The notes beneath the pieces were generated by a model that ran no database searches, was not told the DNA's origin, and worked only from the letters and a program-made list of their open reading frames with translations. Below are positions 1-11,515 of a stretch of 11,515 bases of DNA, in pieces; position 1 is the first letter of the stretch, and each line of letters starts with the position of its first letter. This DNA is from a virus. The DNA lies in UHGV virus genome UHGV-0113878. One strand, 5' to 3'. The translations under genes and the position numbers were made by a program.

Positions 1-50
1 TCACAAAGTCACCTGTCACTCTTTCTGGCTGCCAGATAAGGATTGAGTAA
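1..50 (+). CDS. 3' end of an upstream late gene (partial; by position possibly the gp10-like tail hub/head completion gene)
   Basis: The frame ending at TAA 48-50 is open from the window edge (codons 3-5 onward, reading ...[15 protein letters not shown]). The stop overlaps the ATG of the next gene (TAATG), the same coupling used elsewhere in this operon. The product is inferred only from P22 gene order. Confidence 0.3.
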
Positions 51-1003
51 TGGCTGATTCGAATCTCAATGAGCCAGTAATCATCCAGGCTACGCGGCTC
101 GATACATCAGTCCTTCCACGCAATATCTTCTCGCAGTCGTATCTGCTTTACGTTATTGCACAGGGTGCTGATGTTGGTAACGTGGCTAACAAGGCTAACG
201 AAGCAGGGAAGGGGGCTTATGATGCACAGGTGAAGAATGATGAGCAGGATGCCACCCTTGCAGACCATGAATCCAGAATTGCTGCTGCTGAAGCAACTCT
301 CGTCAATCATGAACATAGAATCGCAACAGCGGAAAGCACTCTTGCAGATCATGAAACAAGGATTATGGCTGCCGAAACAGAGCTGGCTGATCACGAGACG
401 CGAATTGCTGCCAATGAATCTGAGTTAGCAGACCATGATGCGCGCATAACTCAGAATACAACCGATATCGACGCACTTGATACCAGGCTCGCAGCGGCAG
501 AGGGAAGTATTTCGACGCTACAAAGCACAGTTGGTGATCACTCAACAAGAATATCTGCGCTTGAGTATGCCACCACGCGCAAGAAATCAGAGGTTGTTTA
601 CTCAGGAGTATCTGTAACCATCCCGACAGCGCCGACCAACCTTGTTAGCCTGCTGAAAACGCTCACGCCGTCATCCGGAACGTTGGCACCATTCTTCGAC
701 ACCGTTAACAACAAGATTGTTGTGTTCAACGAGAACAAAACCTTGTTCTTCAAGCTGTCGATTGTCGGGACGTGGCCCAGCGGAACCGCCAACAGGTCAA
801 TGCAGCTAACATTCTCCGGTTCTGTTCCTGACACACTGGTCAGCAGTCGTAATGCGGCGACAACAACCGACAACATCCTGTTAGCTACGTTCTTCAGTGT
901 GGATAAAGACGGCTTTCTTGCCACAAATGGCAGTACGTTAACCATTCAGTCGAATGGTGCGGCGTTTACTGCCACAACCATCAAGATAATCGCGGAGCAG
1001 TAA
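50..1003 (+). CDS. Tail needle protein (P22 gp26-like) with coiled-coil shaft and C-terminal knob domain
   Basis: The N-terminus [43 protein letters not shown]...[12 protein letters not shown] closely matches the P22 gp26 tail-needle N-terminus as I recall it. It is followed by a heptad-type repeat region (aa 69-152) and a ~160-aa beta-rich C-terminal extension, as in Sf6/HK620-type knobbed needles. SD-like AAGGA sits about 6 nt upstream of the ATG. Confidence 0.85.
254..505 (+). repeat. Six tandem 42-nt (14-codon) coding repeats inside the tail needle gene
   Basis: Translated units are [14 protein letters not shown] / [14 protein letters not shown] / [14 protein letters not shown] / [14 protein letters not shown] / [14 protein letters not shown] / [14 protein letters not shown]. 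They are in frame and diverged at the nucleotide level, with an [AV][DN]HExRI core. Confidence 0.7.
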
Positions 1004-1458
1004 TGATTCAGTTCAAACCAACGCGAAACATCGACCTGATCGAAGCAGTAGGAAATCACCCTGACATTATCGCCGGGAGCAACAACGGTGATGGATACGA
1101 CTACAAACCTGATTGCCGTTACTTTGAGGTGAACGTGCACGGGCAGTTCGGCGGCATTGTTTACTATCAGGAGATTCAGCCGCTGACATTCAATTGCCAC
1201 GCCATGTACCTGCCAGAGATTCGCGGCTTCAGCAAGGAAATCGGGCTGGCGTTCTGGCGATACATTCTGACTAACACCACTGTTCAGTGTGTCACATCGT
1301 TCGCTGCGCGCAAATTCCGCCACGGGCAGATGTACTGCGCAATGATTGGCCTTAATCGTGTAGGAACCATCAAGAAATACTTCAAAGGCGTGGATGACGT
1401 GACATTTTACAGTGCTACACGCGAAGAACTAATCGAATTCCTGAATCACGGGAGATAG
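1003..1458 (+). CDS. Phage protein at the gp14 position (between tail needle and ejection proteins); function not assignable from sequence
   Basis: A 151-aa ORF whose start overlaps the needle stop (TAATG). It keeps the gene order 26-14-7-20-16 of P22-like phages. No motif is recognisable; the protein is Cys/aromatic-rich. Confidence 0.6.
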   Translation: MIQFKPTRNIDLIEAVGNHPDIIAGSNNGDGYDYKPDCRYFEVNVHGQFGGIVYYQEIQPLTFNCHAMYLPEIRGFSKEIGLAFWRYILTNTTVQCVTSFAARKFRHGQMYCAMIGLNRVGTIKKYFKGVDDVTFYSATREELIEFLNHGR

Positions 1459-1460
1459 CC

Positions 1461-2153
1461 ATGTTATATGCATTTAAGCTGGGCAGAAAACTGCGCGGCG
1501 AGGAGCCTTATTGCCCTGAAAAAGGCGGGAAAGGTGGCAGTTCTGATAAAAGCGCAAAGTATGCATCAGAAGCTCAGAAGTATGCCGCAGACCTGCAAAA
1601 TCAGCAGTGGCAGACGATCATGAAAAACCTTGCTCCGTTCACGCCTCTTGCGGAGCAGTATGTTAACCAGCTTCAGAACCTTTCCAGTTTAGAAGGTCAG
1701 GGGCAGGCACTTAATCAGTATTACAACTCTCAGCAGTATAAAGACCTTGCAGGTCAGGCTCGTTACCAGAGTCTTGCTGCTGCGGAGGCTACGGGAGGAC
1801 TTGGTTCGACAGCCACAAGCAATCAACTGGCTACGATCGCGCCGACTCTCGGTCAGTCTTGGTTATCAAACCAGATGAGCAATTACAACAATCTGGCAAA
1901 CGTTGGGCTTGGTGCGCTGCAAGGTCAGGCAAACGCCGGGCAGACGTACGCCAACAACATGAGCAGCATTGCACAGCAAAGCGCAGCTCTTGCCGCTGCT
2001 AATGCCAACAAACCATCAAGTCTTCAGACAGCAATTAGTGGCGGAACGTCTGGTGCGATTGCCGGTGCAGGTCTTGCCAGCCTTTTGGGAACATCAACAC
2101 CTTGGGGCGCTGGCATTGGTGCTGGTATCGGATTGCTTGGCTCGTTGTTTTAA
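1461..2153 (+). CDS. Ejection (DNA-transfer / internal virion) protein, gp7-position
   Basis: 230 aa, close to the ~229 aa of P22 gp7, and in the expected position. It is Gln/Ala/Gly/Ser-rich and ends in a glycine-zipper-like hydrophobic segment (GAIAGAGLASLLG...GAGIGAGIGLLGSLF). Confidence 0.75.
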   Translation: MLYAFKLGRKLRGEEPYCPEKGGKGGSSDKSAKYASEAQKYAADLQNQQWQTIMKNLAPFTPLAEQYVNQLQNLSSLEGQGQALNQYYNSQQYKDLAGQARYQSLAAAEATGGLGSTATSNQLATIAPTLGQSWLSNQMSNYNNLANVGLGALQGQANAGQTYANNMSSIAQQSAALAAANANKPSSLQTAISGGTSGAIAGAGLASLLGTSTPWGAGIGAGIGLLGSLF

Positions 2154-2162
2154 GGGGTAATC

Positions 2163-3494
2163 ATGGCTACTTGGCAAGGATCAAATGGCGGATTGTTGGC
2201 TGGTATCGGCGGCGTCAACTCAAACGCTCCGAGCGTAAATGACATCGGCAATACGCTTCAGCTTATCAGGCAGAACAATGATATTGAGCGTTCAGGTGCT
2301 AACAATGTTGGGCTGACTGCTTTGCAAGGTCTTTCAGGTATTGCGGGTGTTTTTCAGCAGGAAAAGCAGGCTCAGCGGCAGAAAGAATTTCAGCAGGCGT
2401 ACGCTAATGCTTATGCGTCTGGTGATCGCGGTGCTTTGCGTCAGTTGGCTACTCAATATCCAGACCAGATTGAATCCGTTCGTAAAGGCATGGGATTCAT
2501 TGATGAAGAGCAGCGTAATTCTATCGGCACCTTAGCGGCTGGCGCACGCCTTGCGTCATCGTCTCCAGAAGCAATGCAATCATGGCTGCAAAACAACGCC
2601 GGTGAGTTAGCTCGTGTTGGCGTTAATCCTCATGACGTCGCTCAGATGTACCAACAGAACCCGCGGCAGTTCGGCGAATTTGTCGATCACCTGGGGATGA
2701 ACAGTCTCGGGCCAGAAAAATACTTTGACCTACAGGATAAAATGCAGGGTCGCCAGGTGACCATGCGCGGTCAGGATCTGGATTCGCAAACCGCCGCCCG
2801 GAATCAGGCAATCACAATGCGTGGGCAAGATATCCAGGCAAATTTAGGTCAGCAGCGCATTAATCTGGACGCAGAAACAAACCGCATTAACAACGAAAAT
2901 AAGCACCTTGACCGGATGCTATCAGCAGAAACTAACGACCTGAAGCGCCAGGAAATACAGAGCCGCATAGCAGCCAACAACCAGAAGTTGCAGCAGAAGC
3001 AGCAAGAGCTAAATGATGGCTACAAAGACGGCATCAACACTCTCACAACCAGCATGTTCACTCTGAACGATATCGTTAATTCTCCTGCACTTAAGAGCAT
3101 TACAGGCTTGCGTGGAGCAATCCCCAACGTTCCAGGCTCACAAGCTGCAGACACTCAGGCGCGACTTGATACCTTTAAATCCCAAGCATACCTGACAGCG
3201 GTTCAGGCCATGCGAGGCATGGGCGCACTTTCTGATGCCGAGGGCAAAAAGCTCGACCAGGCTGTTGGTTCGCTGCAGAACTCACAGAGCGAGGAGTCCT
3301 TTCGTCGCAACGCTGGCGTCATCCTGAACACGCTCAACCAGAAGCGTAATGAGGCGGTTGGTAAGTACGTTCAGCAAAACGGTATCAAGCGAGTGGAAGC
3401 GCCTCAGGCTTCTATAGATTACCTGAAGCAGCACCCCGAGCTGTCAATCGACTTCATTAATCGCTACGGATATCTTCCATCTTTGGGGCAGTAA
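2163..3494 (+). CDS. Ejection (DNA-transfer / internal virion) protein, gp20-position
   Basis: A 443-aa ORF with a good SD (AAGGGG) upstream. It is Gln/Asn-rich with an internal repeat ([VI]TMRGQD[LI]) and predicted coiled-coil character. Assignment is by size and synteny. Confidence 0.7.
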   Translation: MATWQGSNGGLLAGIGGVNSNAPSVNDIGNTLQLIRQNNDIERSGANNVGLTALQGLSGIAGVFQQEKQAQRQKEFQQAYANAYASGDRGALRQLATQYPDQIESVRKGMGFIDEEQRNSIGTLAAGARLASSSPEAMQSWLQNNAGELARVGVNPHDVAQMYQQNPRQFGEFVDHLGMNSLGPEKYFDLQDKMQGRQVTMRGQDLDSQTAARNQAITMRGQDIQANLGQQRINLDAETNRINNENKHLDRMLSAETNDLKRQEIQSRIAANNQKLQQKQQELNDGYKDGINTLTTSMFTLNDIVNSPALKSITGLRGAIPNVPGSQAADTQARLDTFKSQAYLTAVQAMRGMGALSDAEGKKLDQAVGSLQNSQSEESFRRNAGVILNTLNQKRNEAVGKYVQQNGIKRVEAPQASIDYLKQHPELSIDFINRYGYLPSLGQ

Positions 3495-5888
3495 ATGGCT
3501 AATTACCGTGATTTGTTAGAGCAGGCTGGCGCACGTTACGGTGTGCCAGAAGGGTTGATGACTGCACTGGGTGCCAAGGAGTCTTCTTACAACCCTGCCG
3601 CAGTAAGCTCCGCCGGGGCTGTAGGATTGACTCAGGTCATGCCTGGGACATGGCGTGATATGGGTTATACCGATGAGCAAATGCAAAACCCCGAATATCA
3701 GGCTGACGCTGGCGCGCGCTATCTGGCAAAGATGTACCAGCAGTTTGGTAACTGGCGTGACGCTCTTCAGGCTTATCACGACGGTCCCGGCAACGTTATG
3801 AAGGCAAAGCGTGGTGAATATACGCCAGGACCTGAAGGCCGCGGTTACGTTGATGATCGCTTTGCTCAATGGGCTGGTGACCCGGTGACAGACTCAACAG
3901 TCGAACAGCGCGCCACCTCTGCAAAGGTACATCCTCAGCAAGACCCTAACAACCCGTTTGCACAACTGGAAGTACAGTCATCCGAACAAGTATCGGCATC
4001 AGGTGTGCAGTCAGACCCAAATAATCCATTTGCTCAGATTGAGCAGCAGGCAGCCAGTCAGCAGCCACCTCAACCCGTAAGTTCTGTCGCACCGAAACCT
4101 GTTCAGCAGCAAGGCGGAATAATGTCTGACCTTGGTAATGGACTTGCTGAAACCGGGCGCGGCTTACTACAGGCAGGAATCAACGTAGCGAACATACCTG
4201 CTGAACTCACTGATGCTGTAACAAGCGCGGCGGCTTGGGCTGGCGGTAAACTCGGCATTGGCGATGGTACATATCAACCAGCGCCACGAGTAACAACGCA
4301 GGGATTAGAGCAGGACTTTGGCCTTCAGCAAGGCGCGCTGACTCCACAAACGACAGAGGGAAGGGTATTTGCTGAAGCATTGCCTTACCTCACTCCTGCT
4401 GGCGTTGAGAGAGCGGCGGTACAGGCACCAACACTTGCTGGTCGAATTGCTCAGGGGGCAACTCGCCTTCTAGCAGAAAACGCAGTTGGATCACTTGCTG
4501 CAAACAGTATGAAAGATGATGCTGAAGCACTCGCTACCGATTTAGGCGTTGGTGTGCTGGCTGGCGGTGCTATTAACGCTGCCGGACGTGGATTAGGTGC
4601 TGCTTATCGTGGCGTTCGTGGTGCTATTGCGCCAGAAGCGCAGCAGGCTATCAGATTTGCAGAGCGTGAAGGAGTTCCTCTGCACACCACAGACCTGTTA
4701 CAGCCTACTTCCCGCGTCGGGAAAATGGCGCAGACGACAGCGGAAAATATCCCCCTGGCTGGCACAAGCGGAATGAGAGCAACGCAACAGGAAGCGAGAA
4801 GCCAGTTGGTGCAGAGATTTGCTGATAAATTCGGTGAGTATGATCCAGCTGTTGTTATTGACAGCCTTAAAGCGAAAACATCAGGAATTCGTCGTGCTGC
4901 AGGGAACCGTCTTGAGCAGGTTCAGAATGCAATGGCGGGAGTCAATATCCAGCCTGCTCGAGCAATTCAGCAGATTGATACAGAAATATCTAACCTGCAG
5001 AAGCTTGGTAAGGTCGCCGATAACGAGACTATTTCAAAACTTCAGTCCTATCGTGATGAGCTTGTTCGCAATGCTGGTCCTGATGGTCCGGTAAATCTGG
5101 ATTTGAAGCAATTAAGCGATCTGCGCAGCCAGTTCAGAATGGACGTGAAGGGGGAACGACCAGTGTTACCAAACCGGTCCGATGCTGCCATTCAGCGCGT
5201 TTACAAGGCAATGACAGACGATATCAATGGTGCCATTGGTCAGAATCTTGGCAACGATACTCTCCGTAAATATCAGCAGGCCAATGCCGTCTACGCTGAC
5301 GAAGCGGCGAAACTAAAGAATACCAGGCTGAAGAATGTTCTCATGAAAGGCGACCTGACGCCGGAAGTTGTCAACAACATGCTATTCAGCAAGAACAAAT
5401 CGGAAATTAAGACGCTGTATAACTCAGTTGGTCGTGTTGGCAGGGCGCAAATGCGCAATGGCATCATTGGAAAGGCGATGGAGAAATCAGGTGGTTCCCC
5501 TGACCAGTTCCTTCGACAGCTTAACATCCTGCAAAACCAGACTGGCATCACATTTAAAGGTCAGGAAGCCGCTTATCTGAAAGGATTAAAAAACTACCTG
5601 CAATCCACGCAGCAGGCTGCAAAAGCGGCAGTAACAACACCCACAGGGCAGCAAACTATCCCGTTCATTATTGGGTATGGGACGGCAATGAACCCGGCGA
5701 CAACTGGCGCAGCAGTAAGCTACGGACTTCTTGCTCGCGCCTATGAGAGCGAGCCATTCAGAAATGCAATGCTCCGAATGGCAAACACCCCACGCGGATC
5801 AACAGCGTTTGAGAAAGCCATGCAGCAGGCACAAAAGGCAATTAACGCTATGACGCAGGGGGCTAAGTCTGATGCGTTGTCAGAATAG
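3495..5888 (+). CDS. Ejection protein (gp16-position) with N-terminal family-1 lytic transglycosylase (SLT) domain
   Basis: The N-terminal ~110 aa carry the three classic SLT motifs: AKES (catalytic Glu29, nt 3579-3581), GLTQVMPGTW, and AYHDGPGN. A linker with two DPNNPFAQ[LI]E repeats and a long Ala/Gly-rich body follow. The ATG abuts the upstream stop (TAAATG). Confidence 0.85.
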   Translation: MANYRDLLEQAGARYGVPEGLMTALGAKESSYNPAAVSSAGAVGLTQVMPGTWRDMGYTDEQMQNPEYQADAGARYLAKMYQQFGNWRDALQAYHDGPGNVMKAKRGEYTPGPEGRGYVDDRFAQWAGDPVTDSTVEQRATSAKVHPQQDPNNPFAQLEVQSSEQVSASGVQSDPNNPFAQIEQQAASQQPPQPVSSVAPKPVQQQGGIMSDLGNGLAETGRGLLQAGINVANIPAELTDAVTSAAAWAGGKLGIGDGTYQPAPRVTTQGLEQDFGLQQGALTPQTTEGRVFAEALPYLTPAGVERAAVQAPTLAGRIAQGATRLLAENAVGSLAANSMKDDAEALATDLGVGVLAGGAINAAGRGLGAAYRGVRGAIAPEAQQAIRFAEREGVPLHTTDLLQPTSRVGKMAQTTAENIPLAGTSGMRATQQEARSQLVQRFADKFGEYDPAVVIDSLKAKTSGIRRAAGNRLEQVQNAMAGVNIQPARAIQQIDTEISNLQKLGKVADNETISKLQSYRDELVRNAGPDGPVNLDLKQLSDLRSQFRMDVKGERPVLPNRSDAAIQRVYKAMTDDINGAIGQNLGNDTLRKYQQANAVYADEAAKLKNTRLKNVLMKGDLTPEVVNNMLFSKNKSEIKTLYNSVGRVGRAQMRNGIIGKAMEKSGGSPDQFLRQLNILQNQTGITFKGQEAAYLKGLKNYLQSTQQAAKAAVTTPTGQQTIPFIIGYGTAMNPATTGAAVSYGLLARAYESEPFRNAMLRMANTPRGSTAFEKAMQQAQKAINAMTQGAKSDALSE

Positions 5889-6052
5889 CTTCGCAAACAC
5901 CAGGAACGTGCAAAAACCAAATATATAGAGCGCAATATTCAACAGATCTCTTTGCATAGACTCATCTCATAATTAACAAATCATAACTGACATTAGTGCA
6001 ATGCAGGGCAAGTTGCATCTTGTTCAGCATTGCTACGTCTGGAGCAAATTAA

Positions 6053-8452
6053 ATGACAGATATTACAGCCAATGTTGTAGTGAGTATGCCTTCGCAACTC
6101 TTCACTATGGCGCGTTCTTTTAAAGCGGTTGCCAATGGCAAAATTTATATCGGTAAAATTGACACTGACCCGGTAAATCCTGAAAACCAGATTCAGGTTT
6201 ATGTGGAGAACGAAGACGGTTCTCACATTCCTGTTTCTCAACCAATCATCATTAACGCTGCTGGATATCCGGTATATAACGGGCAGATTGCCAAATTCGT
6301 AACTGTTCAAGGCCATTCTATGGCTGTATATGATGCATATGGCACTCAGCAGTTCTATTTCCCTAATGTGCTGAAGTATGACCCGGATCAGCTACGGCAG
6401 CAGTTAGAAGACCCGGATGGTGCTAAAAAATATCCCGAATTGCAGATTGCACGATGGCGTGATGACAAAGATGTTCGCGGTTGGGGGGCTATCAGTGATG
6501 GAATAACTGACGCTACTGAGGCATTCTCTAACGCAGGCTATAGAATGTTTGTTCCTGATGGCGATTTTGCAGTAAATACTCTCGAAGTTGATGTATCTTC
6601 TGTTCAAGGTATTGGGAGGATTGTTGCTGATAATGGATCTCTTATTTCAGTTTCTCGTCTACTTGAAACTGACAAACTTGTGCAGAGAAAAATGATGGAA
6701 CCTTTTTTTGGTTTTCAGGGAGAAACAAACACAGAAATTTATCCTAATGCCAGAAATGCGTTACAGGGGATCGCATATTGCCGTGTTAATGGCATTGAAA
6801 AACTATTTGTCACACAACGGCCTGTTGGGCCAACCTGGTCAGATAAAGAAAGAGTTCGTATTGTTGAGTTTAATCTTTATGATGATGGAAGGGTAGTAAA
6901 CCATGTTGCGTATTCTCCAGAATTAAACCTTGGGCACGGATTTGATCTTTCTGCCATGGTGGAGAATGGTCAAGTATATTTATATACATCAAGTGTAACC
7001 AATTCAGGTGAAGATGGGGAGTCTGCAGGCAAAGGGTTTAGTAAAATAACTTGGCGAGGGGCAGGAACAACTCAGTCTGACGTAAAAAGTTATAATGTAT
7101 GGGGGATTACTGGTAGCGGTCACCCATTTCAAGATTACAATCGTGCAGGAATTGCCATTTCTTCTGACGGTCGTCTTTTAATAATGGTTAATACACCAAA
7201 GAGTGATGCCGCTAAACGAACTGTATTTATATACGATAAAATATCAATTGATAAACTTGAAGATAAAACATTAGCAAACCCCATGTTTGTTTGGGAAATG
7301 AGCGACTCACCTTCTGAAGGCGCTTACTCTGTACAAGGTATTGCGTCTGATGGAAGATATATACATATACTTAAGGGAGGCACTAATGCTTTTGGAAAGC
7401 ATCATATCTTTACATATGATTTAACAGGTAATTTACTAAGAAAATTAGATATCGATGATGCAAGGTCGCAATATGGGCGCGATGGGTTGCTTAACCATCC
7501 AACTCTTGGGAATCCAGCCAGATTCGAGCCGGAAGGTTTAACTATTCGTGGCGAAGAAATAATTATAAGCTGCATAGAAACATGGAGGGCAGGAGCTAAT
7601 ATTGTAAACTGGCGTGGAAGAAGATGGGCTGCATCATCCATTGAGACTTCTGGAATAATTGGTGTCCCTCCATCAAATGGCTCTTATTGGGTAGAAACAA
7701 CCAAGGATGCAAATTCTGGAGACTGGAGTCCTGATACAGATTATGGATGGGGAAGTAGCTATTCTCTTGAGAAAAAGACAATTTACTCTATACGACCAGC
7801 GACTGGTAACAACGATGAGCAGAACCTTAATTCTGGCATAACCAATGCTTCAAGTAATGCAGGTGTAGATGCCGGAGAAAGCGGGCGAAATATATCATTT
7901 AGATGGCGCAATGCTTTTAATATTGTTGCATTTAGCGAACGTCTTGGTGAGTACTTCAAAGCTATTATGTATGATAATAGCTCAAGATTAAGAATATACG
8001 ATCAGCAAAACGGTAGTGATAACACTGTTTATGGCTCAATCCAGGCACTATTTACGTCATCATTTAAGGGATTGATTTTAAGGGGTAGGGGGGTATCAGC
8101 ATCAAATAGTTCCTATATTAGGTTACATTCATCTGATGATCCAAACTACCCAAATTCGATCATTGAAGGAACAAGAACAGATGGAAGTTTTTCCAGGGAA
8201 ACAGATTCAAACGGAACCACTACATTTGCATCGGACTCAGAGCACGAACCGTTGCGTATCAGAAGGGCTTCAGATGGTTTGTTGTTTGCATACGAGAAAG
8301 TAAGAGGTACAACTCTCTTTGGAATTTATAGAGGCTCCGGTTCACCTGAGGGTGTTGTGACCGCACCTCAGGGGTCAATGTACATTGATTATAATGGTGA
8401 TTGGTATCAAAAGAAAACAGGAACAGGAAATACAGGATGGGTGTTAAAATAG
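6053..8452 (+). CDS. Tailspike protein: P22/Sf6/HK620-type head-binding N-terminal domain fused to a divergent receptor-binding (probable glycan-depolymerase) region
   Basis: The N-terminal ~113 aa ([50 protein letters not shown]...VLKYDPDQ) match the conserved head-binding domain of P22 gp9 and the HK620/Sf6 tailspikes as I recall them. The remaining ~690 aa are unrelated to the P22 beta-helix. GGAG sits 8 nt upstream of the ATG. The gene is markedly more AT-rich than upstream genes. Confidence 0.9.
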
Positions 8453-8532
8453 ACTATTCTATTTTAATTTTTCCCATTAATTAATGATGGGAATCCCAAA
8501 AATTGATAATACATCATCTATTTATAACTCAG

Positions 8533-8557
8533 CCACCTCATAGTGAGGTGGTCTTTT
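8533..8557 (+). terminator. Putative rho-independent terminator after the tailspike gene
   Basis: An 8-bp perfect stem CCACCTCA/TGAGGTGG with a 3-nt loop is followed by TCTTTT. A second, weaker similar hairpin (CCACC-TTG-GGTGG + GCTTTTA) lies at 8576-8595. Confidence 0.5.
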
Positions 8558-8634
8558 ACTGTTATCCCTAAATCACCACCTTGGGTGGGCTTTTACCAAT
8601 ACCAATGACAGTATTTTTGCTGTAAGAAAGTAAC

Positions 8635-8656
8635 AATAAACCATAAATGGTTTATT
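8635..8656. promoter_or_regulatory. Perfect 10-bp inverted repeat (AATAAACCAT-AA-ATGGTTTATT), candidate operator or regulatory site upstream of the lysis cassette
   Basis: The dyad symmetry is read directly from the sequence. It lies ~55 nt upstream of the first lysis-cassette start, in an AT-rich intergenic region. Function is inferred. Confidence 0.35.
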
Positions 8657-8701
8657 ATGCTTTGTGACTTACCATTTAGGAGGTTGTAATGCATATAAAC
8701 G

Positions 8702-9112
8702 GTGGAAAACATGTCAGCCCAACTAACCAGTGAAACTTTAAATCAGTGGCTTAGCATGAGTTCTCTGGCGGCGGTGATAGCAGGAGTTCCTCCTGAGGTT
8801 GCTTTGGGGGCTTTGGCTGGAGCGGTAATTTTTGTTACCTCTGCGGTAGAGTATCCCATTCGTCGTCGTGTACTCTTGTCGATGCTTAGCTTTCTCTGCG
8901 GCCTTCTTTTTTATAAACCAGCAGCATCAATTCTTATCGGCATAGCCAGCCTGATCCCTACTATCACGCAGGACTCTTTTGAAAAAGGGATTGTTTTCTC
9001 TGCTGGTGCATTCGTGTCAGCAATCGTCGCAGTTCGAATTGGCATCTGGCTCTATCACCGTTCCGATAATCCACGCGAGTTAATTCCGGGGAGAAAAGGC
9101 GATGGTAACTAA
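8702..9112 (+). CDS. Small multi-pass membrane protein, first gene of lysis cassette (putative holin/antiholin-like); likely true start at ATG 8711
   Basis: About four hydrophobic helices and a charged C-terminal tail ([18 protein letters not shown]). GTG 8702 has no SD, whereas ATG 8711 has GGTGGA 4 nt upstream. The 3' end overlaps the next gene by 11 nt. Confidence 0.55.
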   Translation: MENMSAQLTSETLNQWLSMSSLAAVIAGVPPEVALGALAGAVIFVTSAVEYPIRRRVLLSMLSFLCGLLFYKPAASILIGIASLIPTITQDSFEKGIVFSAGAFVSAIVAVRIGIWLYHRSDNPRELIPGRKGDGN

Positions 9113-9410
9113 TGAGCTTGTTTTGCTTATCACCAATGCACTTATTTGTACTGGCATAGCAATTCGTGTTGTCACATTCCGGCGTAACGGTTCACAACAT
9201 CGAAGATGGGGTGGCTGGCTTGCTTATTTTCTGATTGTTGCTGCGGCCAGTATTCCAGTTCGTGCTGTCTATGCAATCTGGCTACGCACGCCAATGGCTG
9301 TGGATTTATCTGAGGTCATTATCAACGCTGTCATGCTTGCTGCGGTTCTTAAAACTCGCGGTAACGTTGTTCAGATTTTCAAAATAACGAGGTCTAAACA
9401 TGGAGATTAA
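9102..9410 (+). CDS. Putative class-I-like holin (3 TM, N-out/C-in predicted)
   Basis: 102 aa with three hydrophobic segments, a positively charged TM1-TM2 loop (RRNGSQHRR) and a charged C-terminus ([19 protein letters not shown]). It lies immediately upstream of, and overlapping, the endolysin gene. Confidence 0.6.
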
Positions 9411-10029
9411 ACAATTCCAACGAGCTGCTGGTATTAGCGAGGTGCTGGCCGCACGCTGGTTCTCGCATATAACTTCTGCGATGAAAGAGTTTGATATCAG
9501 CAAACCAGAAGATCAGGCAATGTTTATTGCTCAGGTCGGGCATGAGTCTGGAGGCTTCACCCGGTTGCAGGAAAATTTCAACTACAGCGTCAGCGGACTG
9601 GCGAGCTTTGTCAGGACTGGACGCCTCACCCAGGGACAGGCTAATGCACTGGGGCGCCGTGCTGGTGAACCACCATTGCCACTTGAGCGCCAGCGCGCGA
9701 TCGCAAATCTGGTTTACAGCAAACGCATGGGTAACAATGCTCCCGGCGATGGCTGGAATTACCGTGGGCGCGGGCTTATCCAGATTACCGGTTTGAATAA
9801 CTATCGTGACTGCGGAAACGGTCTGAAAGTTGACCTGCTGGAGAATCCTGAACTGCTGGCGCAGGACGAATACGCGGCTCGTAGCGCGGCGTGGTTCTTT
9901 GCCAGCAAAGGATGCATGAAGTATACCGGTGATATTGCACGTGTAACTCTGATTATCAATGGTGGCCGGAACGGCATCGACGACCGGCGCGCGCGGTACG
10001 TCACTGCCAGTAAGGTGCTGGCTATATGA
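9400..10029 (+). CDS. Endolysin, glycoside hydrolase family 19-like (chitinase-class-I-type phage lysozyme)
   Basis: 209 aa with GH19-type motifs: GHESGGF...ENFNY (Glu49 at nt 9544-9546, Glu58) and [15 protein letters not shown]. There is no N-terminal signal or SAR hydrophobic segment. GAGG lies 7 nt upstream of the ATG. Size and motifs resemble the GH19 endolysins of Salmonella phages such as SPN1S, as I recall them. Confidence 0.88.
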
Positions 10030-10508
10030 TCTTAGCATTCGTAAAAGCATATCAGAAACAACTACTTATCGTGGTGATGCTTGCTGCTCTGTTCATCGTC
10101 GGAGTGGTTGCCTGGAATATACACGGCAGTCGCCAGTACGATGCCGGGTATGCGCAGGCGGAAGAAGACCGCAAAGACGAAGAAGACAAAGTTCGTCAGT
10201 ACTACGAACAGGAGAAAGTGACCAATGAACGTGAAGCGCAGCAGAGAATCGACCAGGCGCGCAATGATGCTCTTGATGCTGCCGCTCGCGCTGGCAGGTT
10301 GCAGCAACAACTCTTTGCCATCCGTGAGCAGCTCAGGCAGTATAACGCCATTGTCGGCGCTGGGACGTCAGCCGCAGACACCGGAGTTTTGCTTGCCGAC
10401 GTGCTCAGCAAATCTCTCGAGAGAAACAGACAACTGGCAGAGTATGCTGACCGGGCAGCCGAAGCCGGAAGAGTCTGCGAAAAACAGTATGACACCCTGA
10501 CAAGATAG
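10026..10508 (+). CDS. i-spanin (Rz-like): N-terminal TM anchor plus periplasmic coiled coil
   Basis: The start overlaps the endolysin stop (ATGA). An N-terminal hydrophobic helix ([18 protein letters not shown]) is followed by a charged, Gln/Arg/Glu-rich helical region. A complete lipoprotein ORF is embedded in the +1 frame. Confidence 0.8.
10225..10500 (+). CDS. o-spanin (Rz1-like outer-membrane lipoprotein), fully embedded in the i-spanin gene in the +1 frame
   Basis: Signal peptide with lipobox LALAG|C (Cys26, nt 10300-10302) and a Pro/Ser-rich mature region of ~66 aa. AGGAGA lies ~8 nt upstream of the ATG. The embedded layout matches the lambda Rz/Rz1 paradigm. Confidence 0.75.
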   Translation: MNVKRSRESTRRAMMLLMLPLALAGCSNNSLPSVSSSGSITPLSALGRQPQTPEFCLPTCSANLSRETDNWQSMLTGQPKPEESAKNSMTP

Positions 10509-10663
10509 CATGGCATTTTTCATGGTACTGATTTCCGGTGACGGTATATAAAACGGTACGGTGAAAATCATGTTGCAGGAAGTTGTTATCAGTCAATTGG
10601 TTATGGTATCCGTAAATAATTGAGTGGGAATGATTTTGATCCCTGCACTATGAATGAACAAAA

Positions 10664-10690
10664 CCCTCTGTTACTACAGAGGGTTTTTTA
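10664..10690. terminator. Bidirectional rho-independent terminator between convergent transcription units
   Basis: A 7-bp GC-rich stem CCCTCTG/CAGAGGG with loop TTACTA is flanked by an A-tract upstream (ACAAAA) and a T-tract downstream (TTTTTTA). It sits between the end of the + strand lysis cassette and the 3' end of the minus-strand gene. Confidence 0.7.
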
Positions 10691-10727
10691 TCTTCAAGAA
10701 TTATAGGCTTGAAGTTACTTACATCGA

Positions 10728-11267
10728 TTAATTAAACCAGCTGTCCGATTTGTTCTCTTCTGCTTTGCCCACGCTTTTCATCAGATCTCGACCGCCCTCA
10801 GTCATATTCCTGTTTGCGTCAGCTTCAGATTGCACCACATCGGTTTGCGCAGCTTTGTGCTTCAGTTCCTGATCGATAAATTCGTTTTCTCGCTTAACGC
10901 GGGCTTCTTCTTTCGCCAGCGCCAGTTTTTGTTTCTGAATCTCTAAGCTGCGTAGCTCATCTTGATAACTTTGATCGCGTTTTTTGTCCGCAGAGGCTTC
11001 GGCGTCCAGTTTATCCTGACGAGCTTTCTTATTTGCCGCTGCCGTTGTCGCTCTTTTGTTAGCGGCGGCCTGGGCGTTTGCGCGACGTTGCTTCTCTTGC
11101 TGGATTTCCCTGTTGCGCTCCGCGACCCATTCGTCATGCTGCCTTTGCTCTTCATTTTTACCTTGCTGTTCCGCTTCTGCGACAGCAGAGAGTTGATCCT
11201 GCAATGATGAGGCGATAGCCGGATAGCTTAAGGAAGCTAAGATGGCGCAAAGAAAAACTTTCTTCAT
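10728..11267 (-). CDS. Secreted/periplasmic highly charged coiled-coil protein of unknown function
   Basis: 179 aa with an N-terminal signal peptide (MKKVFLCAILASLSYPAIA|SS) followed by a Lys/Glu/Gln/Ala-rich predicted helical region. The SD (AGGAG) is correctly spaced. It is convergent with the phage genes. Confidence 0.7.
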   Translation of the reverse strand: MKKVFLCAILASLSYPAIASSLQDQLSAVAEAEQQGKNEEQRQHDEWVAERNREIQQEKQRRANAQAAANKRATTAAANKKARQDKLDAEASADKKRDQSYQDELRSLEIQKQKLALAKEEARVKRENEFIDQELKHKAAQTDVVQSEADANRNMTEGGRDLMKSVGKAEENKSDSWFN

Positions 11268-11282
11268 GACTCCTCCTGATTA

Positions 11283-11515
11283 TTAGCTCTTTTCAGGACA
11301 TTTGGTATTTGGCTGAATACGCGTTTCGTTATACGTCGTGGTAATAACAACGGCTAAACCTGTCGTAAACTGGCACTCTTTACCCACCTGGGTGGAGGTA
11401 TACACTTTGGTGCCTTCCTTATACGTTAGAGAAACACCTTCCACTAAGGTTTTATCATTCACCATAGAACCCGCTGCCGCGCCAACAGCTCCGCCGCCAA
11501 CTGCACCTAAGCATC
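11283..11515 (-). CDS. Glycine-zipper motif protein (partial; 5' end lies beyond the window), probable envelope protein
   Basis: The minus-strand frame is open to the window edge and translates to ...CLGAVGGGAVGAAAGSMVNDKTLVEGVSLTYKEGTKVYTSTQVGKECQFTTGLAVVITTTYNETRIQPNTKCPEKS*. A G/A-rich glycine-zipper segment precedes a beta-rich C-terminus. The ORF track's Met at 11465 is internal. The stop lies 15 nt upstream of the 179-aa gene start, so the two form an operon. Confidence 0.55.
   Translation of the reverse strand, partial: CLGAVGGGAVGAAAGSMVNDKTLVEGVSLTYKEGTKVYTSTQVGKECQFTTGLAVVITTTYNETRIQPNTKCPEKS

Follow-up and report, generated by a model that had tools for sequence, protein, structure and literature searches.

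A nearly obligate pair of overlapping membrane protein genes, most likely a two-component holin, in the lysis cassette of an E. coli prophage

The stretch of viral DNA considered here (the window; 11,515 nt of UHGV virus genome UHGV-0113878) includes the right end of an E. coli prophage, where a lysis cassette adjoins the gene yfgI. The cassette opens with two genes for small membrane proteins, both on the plus strand: ORF1 (8711..9112, 133 aa), a homologue of epsilon15 gp23 with three to four transmembrane (TM) segments, and ORF2 (9102..9410, 102 aa), a homologue of the epsilon15 gp24 “holin” with three TM helices. The two share 11 nt (ATGGTAACTAA). They are followed on the same strand by a soluble GH19 (chitinase-like) endolysin of 209 aa (9400..10029; Pfam PF00182, PHROG 181), the start of which overlaps ORF2 by 11 nt, and then by an Rz-type i-spanin of 160 aa (DUF2514, 10026..10508; Pfam PF10721, E 1e-43; PHROG 312), which overlaps the endolysin gene by 4 nt. 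An Rz1-type o-spanin of 91 aa (10225..10500, plus strand; PHROG 11621, E 5e-41) with the lipobox LAGC is embedded in Rz in the +1 frame. These four genes (five if the embedded Rz1 is counted) overlap, and their translation is probably coupled. A strong intrinsic terminator-like hairpin (10660..10697, plus strand) closes the cassette, and the boundary between prophage and host is found immediately ahead of yfgI (10728-11267, minus strand). A sequence-only reading of the window had described two overlapping small membrane genes (136/133 aa and 102 aa, with 11 nt in common) at the head of the cassette, ahead of the endolysin. Its coordinates and overlap are correct, and the two genes do open a holin-endolysin-spanin cassette, with the GH19 endolysin and Rz/Rz1 downstream.

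Several elements precede ORF1, all on the plus strand. A consensus scan located a promoter-like site at 8630..8658 (GTAACA-17 nt-TATTAT), with a palindrome (AAACCATAAATGGTTT, 8638-8653) within its spacer. Its function would be that of a promoter, but the scan returned three promoter-like sites in total when 3.2 were expected, so that the match taken alone is weak evidence. The site marks the start of a block that is common to epsilon15-type cassettes and conserved in nine relatives; homology to epsilon15 and phiv142-3 begins at 8630-8641, and that to epsilon15 stops at 10636. Downstream from it are a strong Shine-Dalgarno (SD) sequence, AGGAGG (8678-8683), and an upstream ORF (uORF) of 14 codons (ATG at 8689 to TGA at 8733) that overlaps the ORF1 start codon. 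The SD and ATG of the uORF are invariant in all nine of the Uetakevirus-type relatives, and the uORF spans 12 codons in seven of them, whereas in the window and phiv142-3 it spans 14 and lies in a different relative frame. The shift relative to the epsilon15-type relatives results from a 1-nt deletion. The uORF, which is absent from distant members of the family, may be regulatory. A frameshift linking it to ORF1 was considered and rejected because the relative frame is not the same in the window and epsilon15. An Rfam search of the upstream region returned nothing near threshold.

If begun at GTG 8702, ORF1 would encode 136 aa. However, this codon is 18 nt from the sole strong SD, which makes the longer form unlikely, and ATG 8711 is the start chosen both by PGAP and in the epsilon15 and phiv142-3 annotations. 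The simpler reading of the conserved CGGTGG is as an SD for ATG 8711. We also considered a dual start in ORF1 (GTG 8702/ATG 8711) and rejected it, given that the residues in between show no conservation, either of sequence or of charge. In the window's clade the SD of ORF1 is weak, whereas ORF2 has an SD of its own. ORF2 has one start codon and a single N-terminal Met, kept across the family, with no dual-start motif (such a motif is not universal among class I canonical holins). Relative to epsilon15, dN/dS is 0.04 for ORF1, the most constrained gene of the cassette in this comparison, and 0.09 for ORF2, values that indicate strong purifying selection. Judging from these ratios and from the Pfam and PHROG matches described below, ORF1 and ORF2 are real genes and not chance ORFs.

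Both proteins fall in PHROG families labeled as lysis. ORF1 matches Pfam PF16931 (Phage_holin_8) with E 3e-12 (47.1 bits against a cut-off of 26.4, model positions 7-110 of 121) and PHROG 198 “holin” with E 4e-42, and PF16931 is present in 120 of 120 homologues among the ORF1 matches listed. ORF2 matches PF05449 (Phage_holin_3_7) with E 3e-27 (94.9 bits against a cut-off of 25.4, model positions 2-80 of 80) and PHROG 217 with E 2e-34. The larger protein had been regarded, from sequence alone, as “not an obvious holin homologue,” and this cannot be sustained: it is a clear member of PF16931 and PHROG 198, is named “putative holin” by PGAP, and its matches are to these families and not to a non-lysis one. 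The labels in use are far from uniform. The epsilon15 and phiV10 RefSeq records call ORF1 “membrane protein,” and the Klebsiella phage Pylas record calls the ORF1 and ORF2 homologues “antiholin/holin” and “holin,” respectively. In two GenBank records the PF16931 gene alone is annotated as holin, and in those of 118970_sal3 and MA12 one gene of the pair is called and the other left out. A literature search on PF16931 and PF05449 found no experiment on either family; all of the “holin” and “antiholin” labels are predictions. Searches of NCBIfam with both proteins gave no match, and ORF1 is named by no curated model; a PADLOC search at E ≤ 0.1 gave zero matches for either. Comparison of the ORF1 and ORF2 families using hhalign detected no homology (probability 0.7%), thus the partners are not redundant paralogues. 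The holins of Neisseria NgoPhi1 and UE-M6, considered as possible relatives, are unrelated proteins with one and two TM segments.

The architecture of ORF2 is well defined. The AF2 model (pLDDT 84.7) is a confident bundle of three TM helices (residues 2-25, 35-61, and 69-84) with an extra C-terminal helix at 89-100, and family-wide hydropathy for PF05449 agrees with three TM segments. Loop 1 (positions 22-34) is rich in K/R, the tail that follows a conserved RGN motif is basic, and the N-terminus has no positive charge. Based on the positive-inside rule and the family-wide charge distribution, an N-out/C-in orientation is predicted. Three TM domains, this predicted orientation, and a charged C-terminal tail are the features of class I canonical holins of the lambda S105 type, and the adjacent endolysin is soluble and lacks a signal sequence. 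The class-I-like holin topology signals seen initially in the 102-aa protein thus stand: it has three TM segments, its first loop is strongly basic, its C-terminus is basic as well, and the label of its family, PF05449, is that of a 3-TM holin. In ORF1 the long hydrophobic stretches number three (13-46, 54-83, and 94-115), and a Pro/Gly turn splits each of the first two; the first is rich in Gly/Ala/Ser (47% GAST). Its AF2 model is of low confidence (pLDDT 61.5), and the protein may have either three TM segments (N-out), as annotated in epsilon15 gp23 and Pylas gp75, or four (N-in). Of the original estimate of about four and three TM segments, the three of ORF2 are supported by both AF2 and hydropathy, whereas ORF1 is compatible with three or four. 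The ORF1 family has an invariant small-residue motif, G-x-x-A-G-A, of the kind involved in helix packing. No relatives were found in the PDB by sequence or by fold, with the proviso that the ORF1 model is too low in confidence for a fold search, and a BFVD fold search returned weak matches only, to other phage membrane proteins of ~100 aa, one of them named “Holin.”

The cassette DNA is 82%-95% identical over ~2 kb to 27 phage records, including isolated Uetakeviruses. Epsilon15 gp23 and gp24 and their equivalents in phiV10, SPN1S, and phiv142-3 are direct orthologues of the two proteins (protein identity 93%-99% for ORF1 and 83%-93% for ORF2), and the ORF1 protein is 99% identical in phiv142-3, HEMP4, and EC.W1-9. 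Gene order is also as here (membrane protein, holin, GH19 endolysin, Rz/Rz1), the gene tables and overlaps match, and the conserved upstream block and uORF are held in common. The surroundings differ, in that an Sf6/P22-like tail module precedes the cassette in the window and epsilon15-type virion genes do so in epsilon15. It should be noted that the pair is not in itself new: these are the standard, annotated first two genes of the epsilon15/phiV10-type (Uetakevirus) cassette, and they are ordinary in this setting. It is likely that 8711-9410 supplies the membrane component, two genes in all, of a lysis cassette of the Uetakevirus (epsilon15/phiV10/SPN1S) type.

What is new is the comparative result: a PF16931 gene and a PF05449 gene, in that order and overlapping, form a pair that is nearly obligate. 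Viewed from the PF05449 side, a PF16931 gene lies directly upstream in all ~260 loci sampled, and no PF05449 gene without it was seen among them. These include 10 of 10 diverse GenBank phages (Hafnia yong2, mEp390, Pseudomonas D3, BR313c, N4-like Pylas, P2-like RSY1, phiP27, 118970_sal3, MA12, and LMessi), 240 of 240 IMG/VR loci with intact upstream DNA, and 9 of 9 distant 50%-cluster representatives. In the eight GenBank phages with both genes annotated, the overlap is 1-14 nt. Viewed from the PF16931 side, a PF05449 gene is downstream in 167 of 176 loci (33/40 genome loci plus 54/56 and 80/80 IMG/VR loci). The nine exceptions belong to one lineage, P2-like prophages of the endosymbiont Mycoavidus and a close relative, in which no PF05449 homologue is detectable even at E ≤ 10. 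There, the lone PF16931 gene, intact in seven diverged copies, stands directly before a muramidase and Rz/Rz1, whereas PF05449 is retained in all relatives of this lineage at ~54% identity. The pair is found in phages of podo-, sipho-, and myovirus type and precedes seven cell-wall hydrolase families (GH19, GH24, PF11860 muramidase with or without PG_binding_1, GH108, M15_4, and Amidase_3). An N-terminal TM or signal-anchor-release (SAR) segment was absent from all 11 hydrolases checked, namely that of the window and 10 that follow the pair (or the lone PF16931 in Mycoavidus) in other phages. A natural in-frame ORF1-ORF2 fusion (P0057) also exists. If functional, it is hard to square with an ORF1 that is C-in and an ORF2 that is N-out, and would count against the reading of the pair that we favor below.

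Could ORF1 lie outside lysis and be merely co-located with it, for example in superinfection exclusion (as had been suggested for the larger protein), lysogenic conversion, or some other membrane function? The noncommittal RefSeq label, the lack of a curated NCBIfam name, and a prophage context rich in morons are what such a role would have in its favor. However, ORF1 homologues keep the same slot in N4-like (Schitoviridae) Pylas and in P2-like, lambdoid, and D3-like phages, abutting the PF05449 gene in almost every lineage and turning up nowhere else, and their Pfam and PHROG families are labeled as lysis proteins. Together with the empty PADLOC result, this makes a non-lysis role very improbable, superinfection exclusion included. 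The pair is very likely a holin/lysis-timing module.

The endolysin narrows the kind of holin expected. In the window it has no N-terminal hydrophobic or SAR segment (hydropathy, maximum 17-residue KD 0.72), as would be needed for a pinholin/SAR-endolysin system. With a soluble endolysin, what the pair has to provide is a holin of the canonical (large-hole) kind and not a pinholin. The pair is most likely a two-component holin, comprising a hole-former and a cognate membrane partner (antiholin or co-holin). As to which is which, we tentatively take ORF2 as the hole-former and ORF1 as its dedicated, co-evolving timing partner, an assignment that falls a little short of an even chance. Both small proteins would build up in the inner membrane during late expression and, at a set time, large, non-specific holes would form and give the folded endolysin access from the cytoplasm to the murein, after which the spanins would break the outer membrane. 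ORF1 would set or sharpen the timing as a separately encoded antiholin-like regulator, in place of the lambda-style dual start.

In outline, this resembles lambda S105/S107, where release of a soluble endolysin depends on a small protein of three TM segments, oriented N-out/C-in and basic at its C-terminus, and the timing is adjusted by a second membrane protein that differs slightly from the first. In lambda, however, the antiholin comes from the same gene by a dual start, whereas ORF2 has a single start and its partner is an unrelated, separate gene. P2, too, has a separate, non-homologous multi-TM gene (LysA, a 4-TM timing protein) in addition to a 3-TM holin (Y). The resemblance does not extend to sequence (hhalign probability 0.2% for the ORF1 family and LysA, and 0.06% for the ORF2 family and Y), Y belongs to PF04550 rather than PF05449, and lysA comes after the endolysin whereas ORF1 comes before the holin gene. 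The same arrangement as here, “putative antiholin + DUF754 holin,” was predicted for the Burkholderia P2-like phages KS5, KS14, and KL3 (Lynch et al. 2010; PMC3091744). In these phages and in Pylas, a protein of 113-124 aa with three to four TM segments is encoded immediately ahead of a 3-TM protein of the DUF754/PF05449 family and an endolysin. The likeness to KS5, KS14, and KL3 is based on the published description, whereas membership in PF16931 and PF05449 was confirmed here for Pylas and P2-like RSY1. The endolysins differ from that of the window (PG_binding_1 muramidase and GH24), the proteins are just 20%-45% identical, and the roles assigned there, which count in favor of our reading, are predictions.

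The roles within the pair may instead be reversed, with ORF1 (PF16931) the autonomous hole-forming holin and ORF2 (PF05449) a dependent regulator or antiholin. We regard this as rather unlikely, although several observations favor it. PF16931 alone fills the holin slot in the Mycoavidus-type prophages, with muramidase and Rz/Rz1 after it, and the converse, PF05449 alone, was never found. In addition, ORF1 is under the strongest constraint within the cassette and carries the invariant GxxAGA packing motif. Gene order can be read in the same direction. In P1 lydA-lydB, an experimentally studied two-gene system, the hole-former comes first. The same holin-first order is seen in N4 gp63-gp62. In the P. 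aeruginosa alp locus, which we liken by description only, alpB comes first and is called a holin, and alpC is called its anti-holin (PMC7969949). Against reversal, the lone-PF16931 exception is a single recent endosymbiont lineage in which gene loss may be tolerated, and its relatives at ~54% identity keep PF05449. Further, class-I holin anatomy is cleaner in ORF2, and the weak SD and overlapping uORF of ORF1, compared with the SD that ORF2 has to itself, would suit a lower-abundance regulator, as in the assignment that we favor.

The N4 proteins have been dissected experimentally. Gp63 (pinholin) and gp62 (lysis regulator) are adjacent small membrane proteins encoded upstream of the endolysin; the principal holin is one of them, and the other, a regulator that is not essential, can itself form holes weakly. 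The two co-occur in 60 of 65 genomes (bioRxiv 10.1101/2025.11.12.688109). The relationship to our pair is one of arrangement: hhalign probabilities against gp62 and gp63 are ≤0.2%, the Pfam families differ (gp62 is PF25612), the N4 topologies are one and two TM segments, and N4 uses pinholes with a SAR endolysin whereas the endolysin here is soluble. AlpB and AlpC have been described as the “putative holin and anti-holin” of the alpBCDE self-lysis operon, and lysis is as defective in an alpB hol double mutant as in the lys mutant (PMC7969949, PMC8131026). As here, two adjacent small prophage-derived genes open a lysis operon. Searches seeded with D3 orf89 and orf90 returned no core P. aeruginosa gene.

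Alternatively, the two proteins may form an obligate heteromeric holin, co-assembling at a fixed ratio so that neither makes holes alone. Near-universal adjacency with overlaps of 1-14 nt suggests translational coupling, and phages of different morphotypes and endolysin types inherit the two genes together as a unit. The lack of detectable homology between the partners, which sets them apart from redundant paralogues, and the natural fusion P0057 fit with such co-assembly. Yet the Mycoavidus lineage lost PF05449 and kept the rest of the cassette, and N4 gp62, although non-essential, also co-occurs strongly with its partner, showing that co-occurrence is no proof of mutual dependence. In our judgment, an obligate heteromer is quite unlikely. 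That one or other of these departures from the conventional labels is correct (PF16931 as autonomous hole-former with PF05449 as antiholin, or the pair as an obligate heteromeric canonical holin) is best treated as a tentative possibility.

PF16931 and PF05449 behave as one two-gene module across phages of Gamma- and Betaproteobacteria, whatever the virion type or endolysin, and prophages of E. coli, Salmonella, and Klebsiella very commonly carry the pair. Public records nevertheless label these genes inconsistently, and the result is of some value to phage-lysis specialists and annotators. The endolysin family of the cassette includes the structurally solved SPN1S endolysin (the record for the epsilon15 homologue annotates an HHpred match to that structure, 4ok7), and knowing the roles of the two membrane proteins could guide engineered uses of lysis. 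If the roles are reversed or the holin is heteromeric, the pair would represent a widespread two-component holin of Gram-negative phages, to which the epsilon15 clade would add a layer of control via the conserved uORF that overlaps the ORF1 start.

The window carries two overlapping small membrane-protein genes on the plus strand ahead of an endolysin gene, as the sequence-only reading had reported; the coordinates and the 11-nt overlap (ATGGTAACTAA) match, and both ORFs are real genes. ORF1, the larger, runs from GTG 8702 or ATG 8711 to 9112 (136 or 133 aa), and ORF2 from 9102 to 9410 (102 aa). ATG 8711 is the ORF1 start in the phiv142-3, epsilon15 and PGAP annotations alike, and the sole strong Shine-Dalgarno (SD) sequence lies 18 nt from the GTG. 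Pfam and PHROG identify the genes that follow on the same strand as a GH19 endolysin (9400-10029, 209 aa), an Rz-type i-spanin (DUF2514; 10026-10508, 160 aa) and, inside the latter in another frame, an Rz1-type o-spanin with a lipobox (10225-10500, 91 aa). The endolysin gene overlaps the 160-aa ORF by 4 nt, and ORF2 by 11 nt. The endolysin lacks an N-terminal hydrophobic segment and therefore requires a large-hole holin. A strong terminator-like hairpin (10660-10687) ends the cassette. Beyond it, on the minus strand, the host gene yfgI (DUF5384; 10728-11267) and the start of yfgH (11283-11465) mark the right attachment boundary of the prophage, near 10636-10700.

The window itself is a mosaic. 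Positions 1-8451 match, at 99.8% identity, a P22/Sf6-like prophage that occupies the argW site of E. coli 7/2. Positions 6497-11508 match, at 99.6% identity, the end of an epsilon15-like prophage that lies next to yfgI in a different strain, and 1.95 kb of the tailspike gene is common to both parts (junction zone 6497-8451). The whole window was found in no single complete E. coli genome. Either genuine recombination inside the tailspike gene or chimeric assembly could account for this; neither affects the cassette finding.

Two tandem terminator-like hairpins (8532-8595; GCCACCTCATAGTGAGGTGGT, then a T-run, and CCACCTTGGGTGG, then GCTTTT) lie just 3' of the tailspike stop. Downstream of these, the cassette opens with a block conserved among relatives: a plus-strand promoter-like site, GTAACA-17-TATTAT (8630-8658, in the stretch 8630-8661), has in its spacer the 16-bp palindrome AAACCATAAATGGTTT (8638-8653), the counterpart of which in relatives is ATCCATATATGGAT then TGTGTATGAT. 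Cassettes that have otherwise diverged keep this block highly conserved, and it may act as a late promoter or bind a regulator; an RNase III site is marked at the equivalent place in the epsilon15 record, and an Rfam search of the upstream region gave no match. A strong SD (AGGAGG, 8678-8683, plus strand) serves a 14-codon uORF (8689-8733, plus strand, ATG at 8689) that overlaps the ORF1 start codon at 8711. The SD and ATG of the uORF are invariant in 9/9 Uetakevirus-type relatives, seven of which have a 12-codon version (MHxKRW...); the window and phiv142-3 have a 1-nt deletion that alters its frame. The uORF, which is absent from distant members of the ORF1 family, may tune ORF1 translation.

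The larger protein had been described as not an obvious holin homologue. This description fails, because ORF1 matches Pfam PF16931 "Phage_holin_8" (E 3e-12, 47 bits, cut-off 26) and PHROG 198 "holin" (E 4e-42). ORF2 matches PF05449 "Phage_holin_3_7, putative 3TM holin" (E 3e-27, 95 bits, cut-off 25) and PHROG 217, and hhalign detected no homology between the two families (probability 0.7%). The 2-kb cassette DNA shows 82-95% identity to 27 records of Uetakevirus phages (epsilon15/phiV10/SPN1S type); in epsilon15, gp23 ("membrane protein, three transmembrane domains") is the equivalent of ORF1 and gp24 ("holin") that of ORF2. The ORF1 protein is 99.2% identical to products of the isolated phages phiv142-3, HEMP4 and EC.W1-9, and in E. 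coli chromosomes PGAP annotates ORF1 as "putative holin" and ORF2 as "phage holin family protein". Comparison of the window with epsilon15 shows strong purifying selection on both genes (dN/dS 0.04 for ORF1, 0.09 for ORF2). The feature is, then, a lysis cassette already known and annotated.

The class I topology signals attributed to the 102-aa protein hold up. AlphaFold2 predicts, confidently (pLDDT 84.7, pTM 0.69), three long helices at 2-25, 35-61 and 69-84 plus a short C-terminal helix, and in 24 nonredundant PF05449 members Lys/Arg residues are abundant in loop 1 and the C-terminal tail, with no positive charge at the N-terminus. By the positive-inside rule, this pattern fits an N-out/C-in orientation, the class I arrangement. 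ORF1 has hydrophobic stretches at 13-46, 54-83 and 94-115, the first of which (47% Gly/Ala/Ser/Thr) contains an invariant G-x-x-A-G-A motif, is broken by a conserved Gly-x-Asp/Pro turn, and is followed by a conserved basic loop at 52-53. Because its AlphaFold2 model is of low confidence (pLDDT 61.5), ORF1 may have either three predicted transmembrane domains, as others annotate, or four, as first proposed.

Pairing of the two families was sampled first from the PF05449 side and then from the PF16931 side. A PF16931 gene lies immediately 5' of PF05449 in 10/10 diverse GenBank phages (Hafnia yong2, lambdoid mEp390, Pseudomonas D3 and BR313c, N4-like Klebsiella Pylas, P2-like Ralstonia RSY1, Stx phage phiP27, Salmonella 118970_sal3, Pectobacterium MA12 and E. 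coli LMessi), with overlaps of 1-14 nt in the eight that have both genes annotated. It is also upstream in all 240 IMG/VR loci with intact upstream DNA and in 9/9 distant representatives of 50%-identity clusters, one with an intervening extra gene. Conversely, PF05449 is directly 3' of PF16931 in 33/40 genome loci and in 54/56 and 80/80 IMG/VR loci. The nine PF16931 loci without PF05449 all belong to one lineage, P2-like prophages carried by Mycoavidus, an endosymbiont of fungi, and by a close relative; in these a lone PF16931 gene abuts a PF11860 muramidase, then Rz/Rz1, with no PF05449 homologue detected even at E<=10. This is the sole lineage found with a broken pair; Mycoavidus cysteinexigens has several diverged copies of the prophage (loci L019, L023, L025, L031-L033, L044; L312, L313).

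The pair adjoins seven cell-wall hydrolase families (GH19, GH24, PF11860 muramidase with or without PG_binding_1, GH108, Peptidase_M15_4 and Amidase_3), and therefore travels as a unit, independent of the enzyme served, as expected of a holin module; 0/11 hydrolase N-termini checked had a membrane anchor. On these comparisons, PF16931 and PF05449 form a near-obligate two-gene module, very probably that of the holin. A role outside lysis is very improbable, given that PADLOC returned no match and that the pair is also present in an N4-like (Schitoviridae) phage.

Several variants deserve mention. A 232-aa protein cluster (P0057; 21 member sequences on 2 contigs) is a natural in-frame ORF1-ORF2 fusion (…RELIPGEKT-MVTHEFF…), which would constrain the relative topology of the two proteins if real and functional, and which may be a sequencing error within the overlap. 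One P2-like contig (L298) has its PF05449 domain fused to a PG_binding_1-muramidase endolysin (P0265, 358 aa) and an extra 135-aa gene, without a Pfam match, between the PF16931 and PF05449 genes. In D3-like Pseudomonas phages no endolysin follows the pair, its place being taken by a 77-aa ORF in D3 (L006) and a PhageMetallopep (PF18894) protein in BR313c (L129), and their endolysin must be encoded elsewhere. Two lambdoid prophage contigs with the pair (L304, L306) have, just 3' of the spanin genes, a gene for PF24729, an Acb2/Tad1-hairpin anti-CBASS/anti-Thoeris sponge.

No experimental work on either family was found in the literature searched. The same arrangement in Burkholderia P2-like phages was predicted to be a "putative antiholin + DUF754 holin" (Lynch et al., PMC3091744), and the Pylas record reads "antiholin/holin" and "holin". 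The nearest experimentally tested analogue is in phage N4, where the pinholin gp63 is encoded next to gp62, a nonessential regulator with weak hole-forming activity, the two co-occurring in 60/65 genomes (bioRxiv 10.1101/2025.11.12.688109); these N4 proteins serve a SAR endolysin and, like P2 Y and LysA, are unrelated to ORF1/ORF2 in sequence. In P. aeruginosa, the prophage-derived AlpB and AlpC are described as holin and anti-holin, respectively, with genetics supporting the role of AlpB (PMC7969949, PMC8131026), and are a candidate counterpart of ORF1/ORF2.

What the analysis shows directly is family membership, synteny and co-inheritance, gene overlaps, purifying selection, topology signals and a soluble endolysin. 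Both proteins would build up in the inner membrane and jointly supply canonical large-hole holin function, one partner presumably forming the hole while its companion regulates it or assembles with it. We tentatively favor ORF2 as the hole-former and ORF1 as an antiholin-like partner from a separate gene, because ORF2 has the cleaner class I anatomy, no dual start and its own SD, and because in this clade ORF1 has only a weak SD (GGTGG) and a uORF running across its start. Our confidence in this assignment stays somewhat short of even because three observations point to the opposite roles, with ORF1 making the hole and ORF2 as partner: the Mycoavidus lineage keeps PF16931 without PF05449, ORF1 comes first in the gene order, and it is the more tightly constrained of the two. 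We consider this reversed reading less likely. An obligate heteromer, in which both proteins are required, seems less probable still.

As a feature, the cassette is of low novelty; the useful residue is the comparative pairing result. In the RefSeq records of 118970_sal3 (L131) and MA12 (L132), "holin" denotes the PF16931 gene only, and the PF05449 ORF that separates this gene from the endolysin is unannotated; an HMM search detects it (E 7e-25 and 4e-29, respectively). The comparative value is that this near-obligate PF16931 and PF05449 module, very probably the holin, carries inconsistent annotation of its partners' roles.
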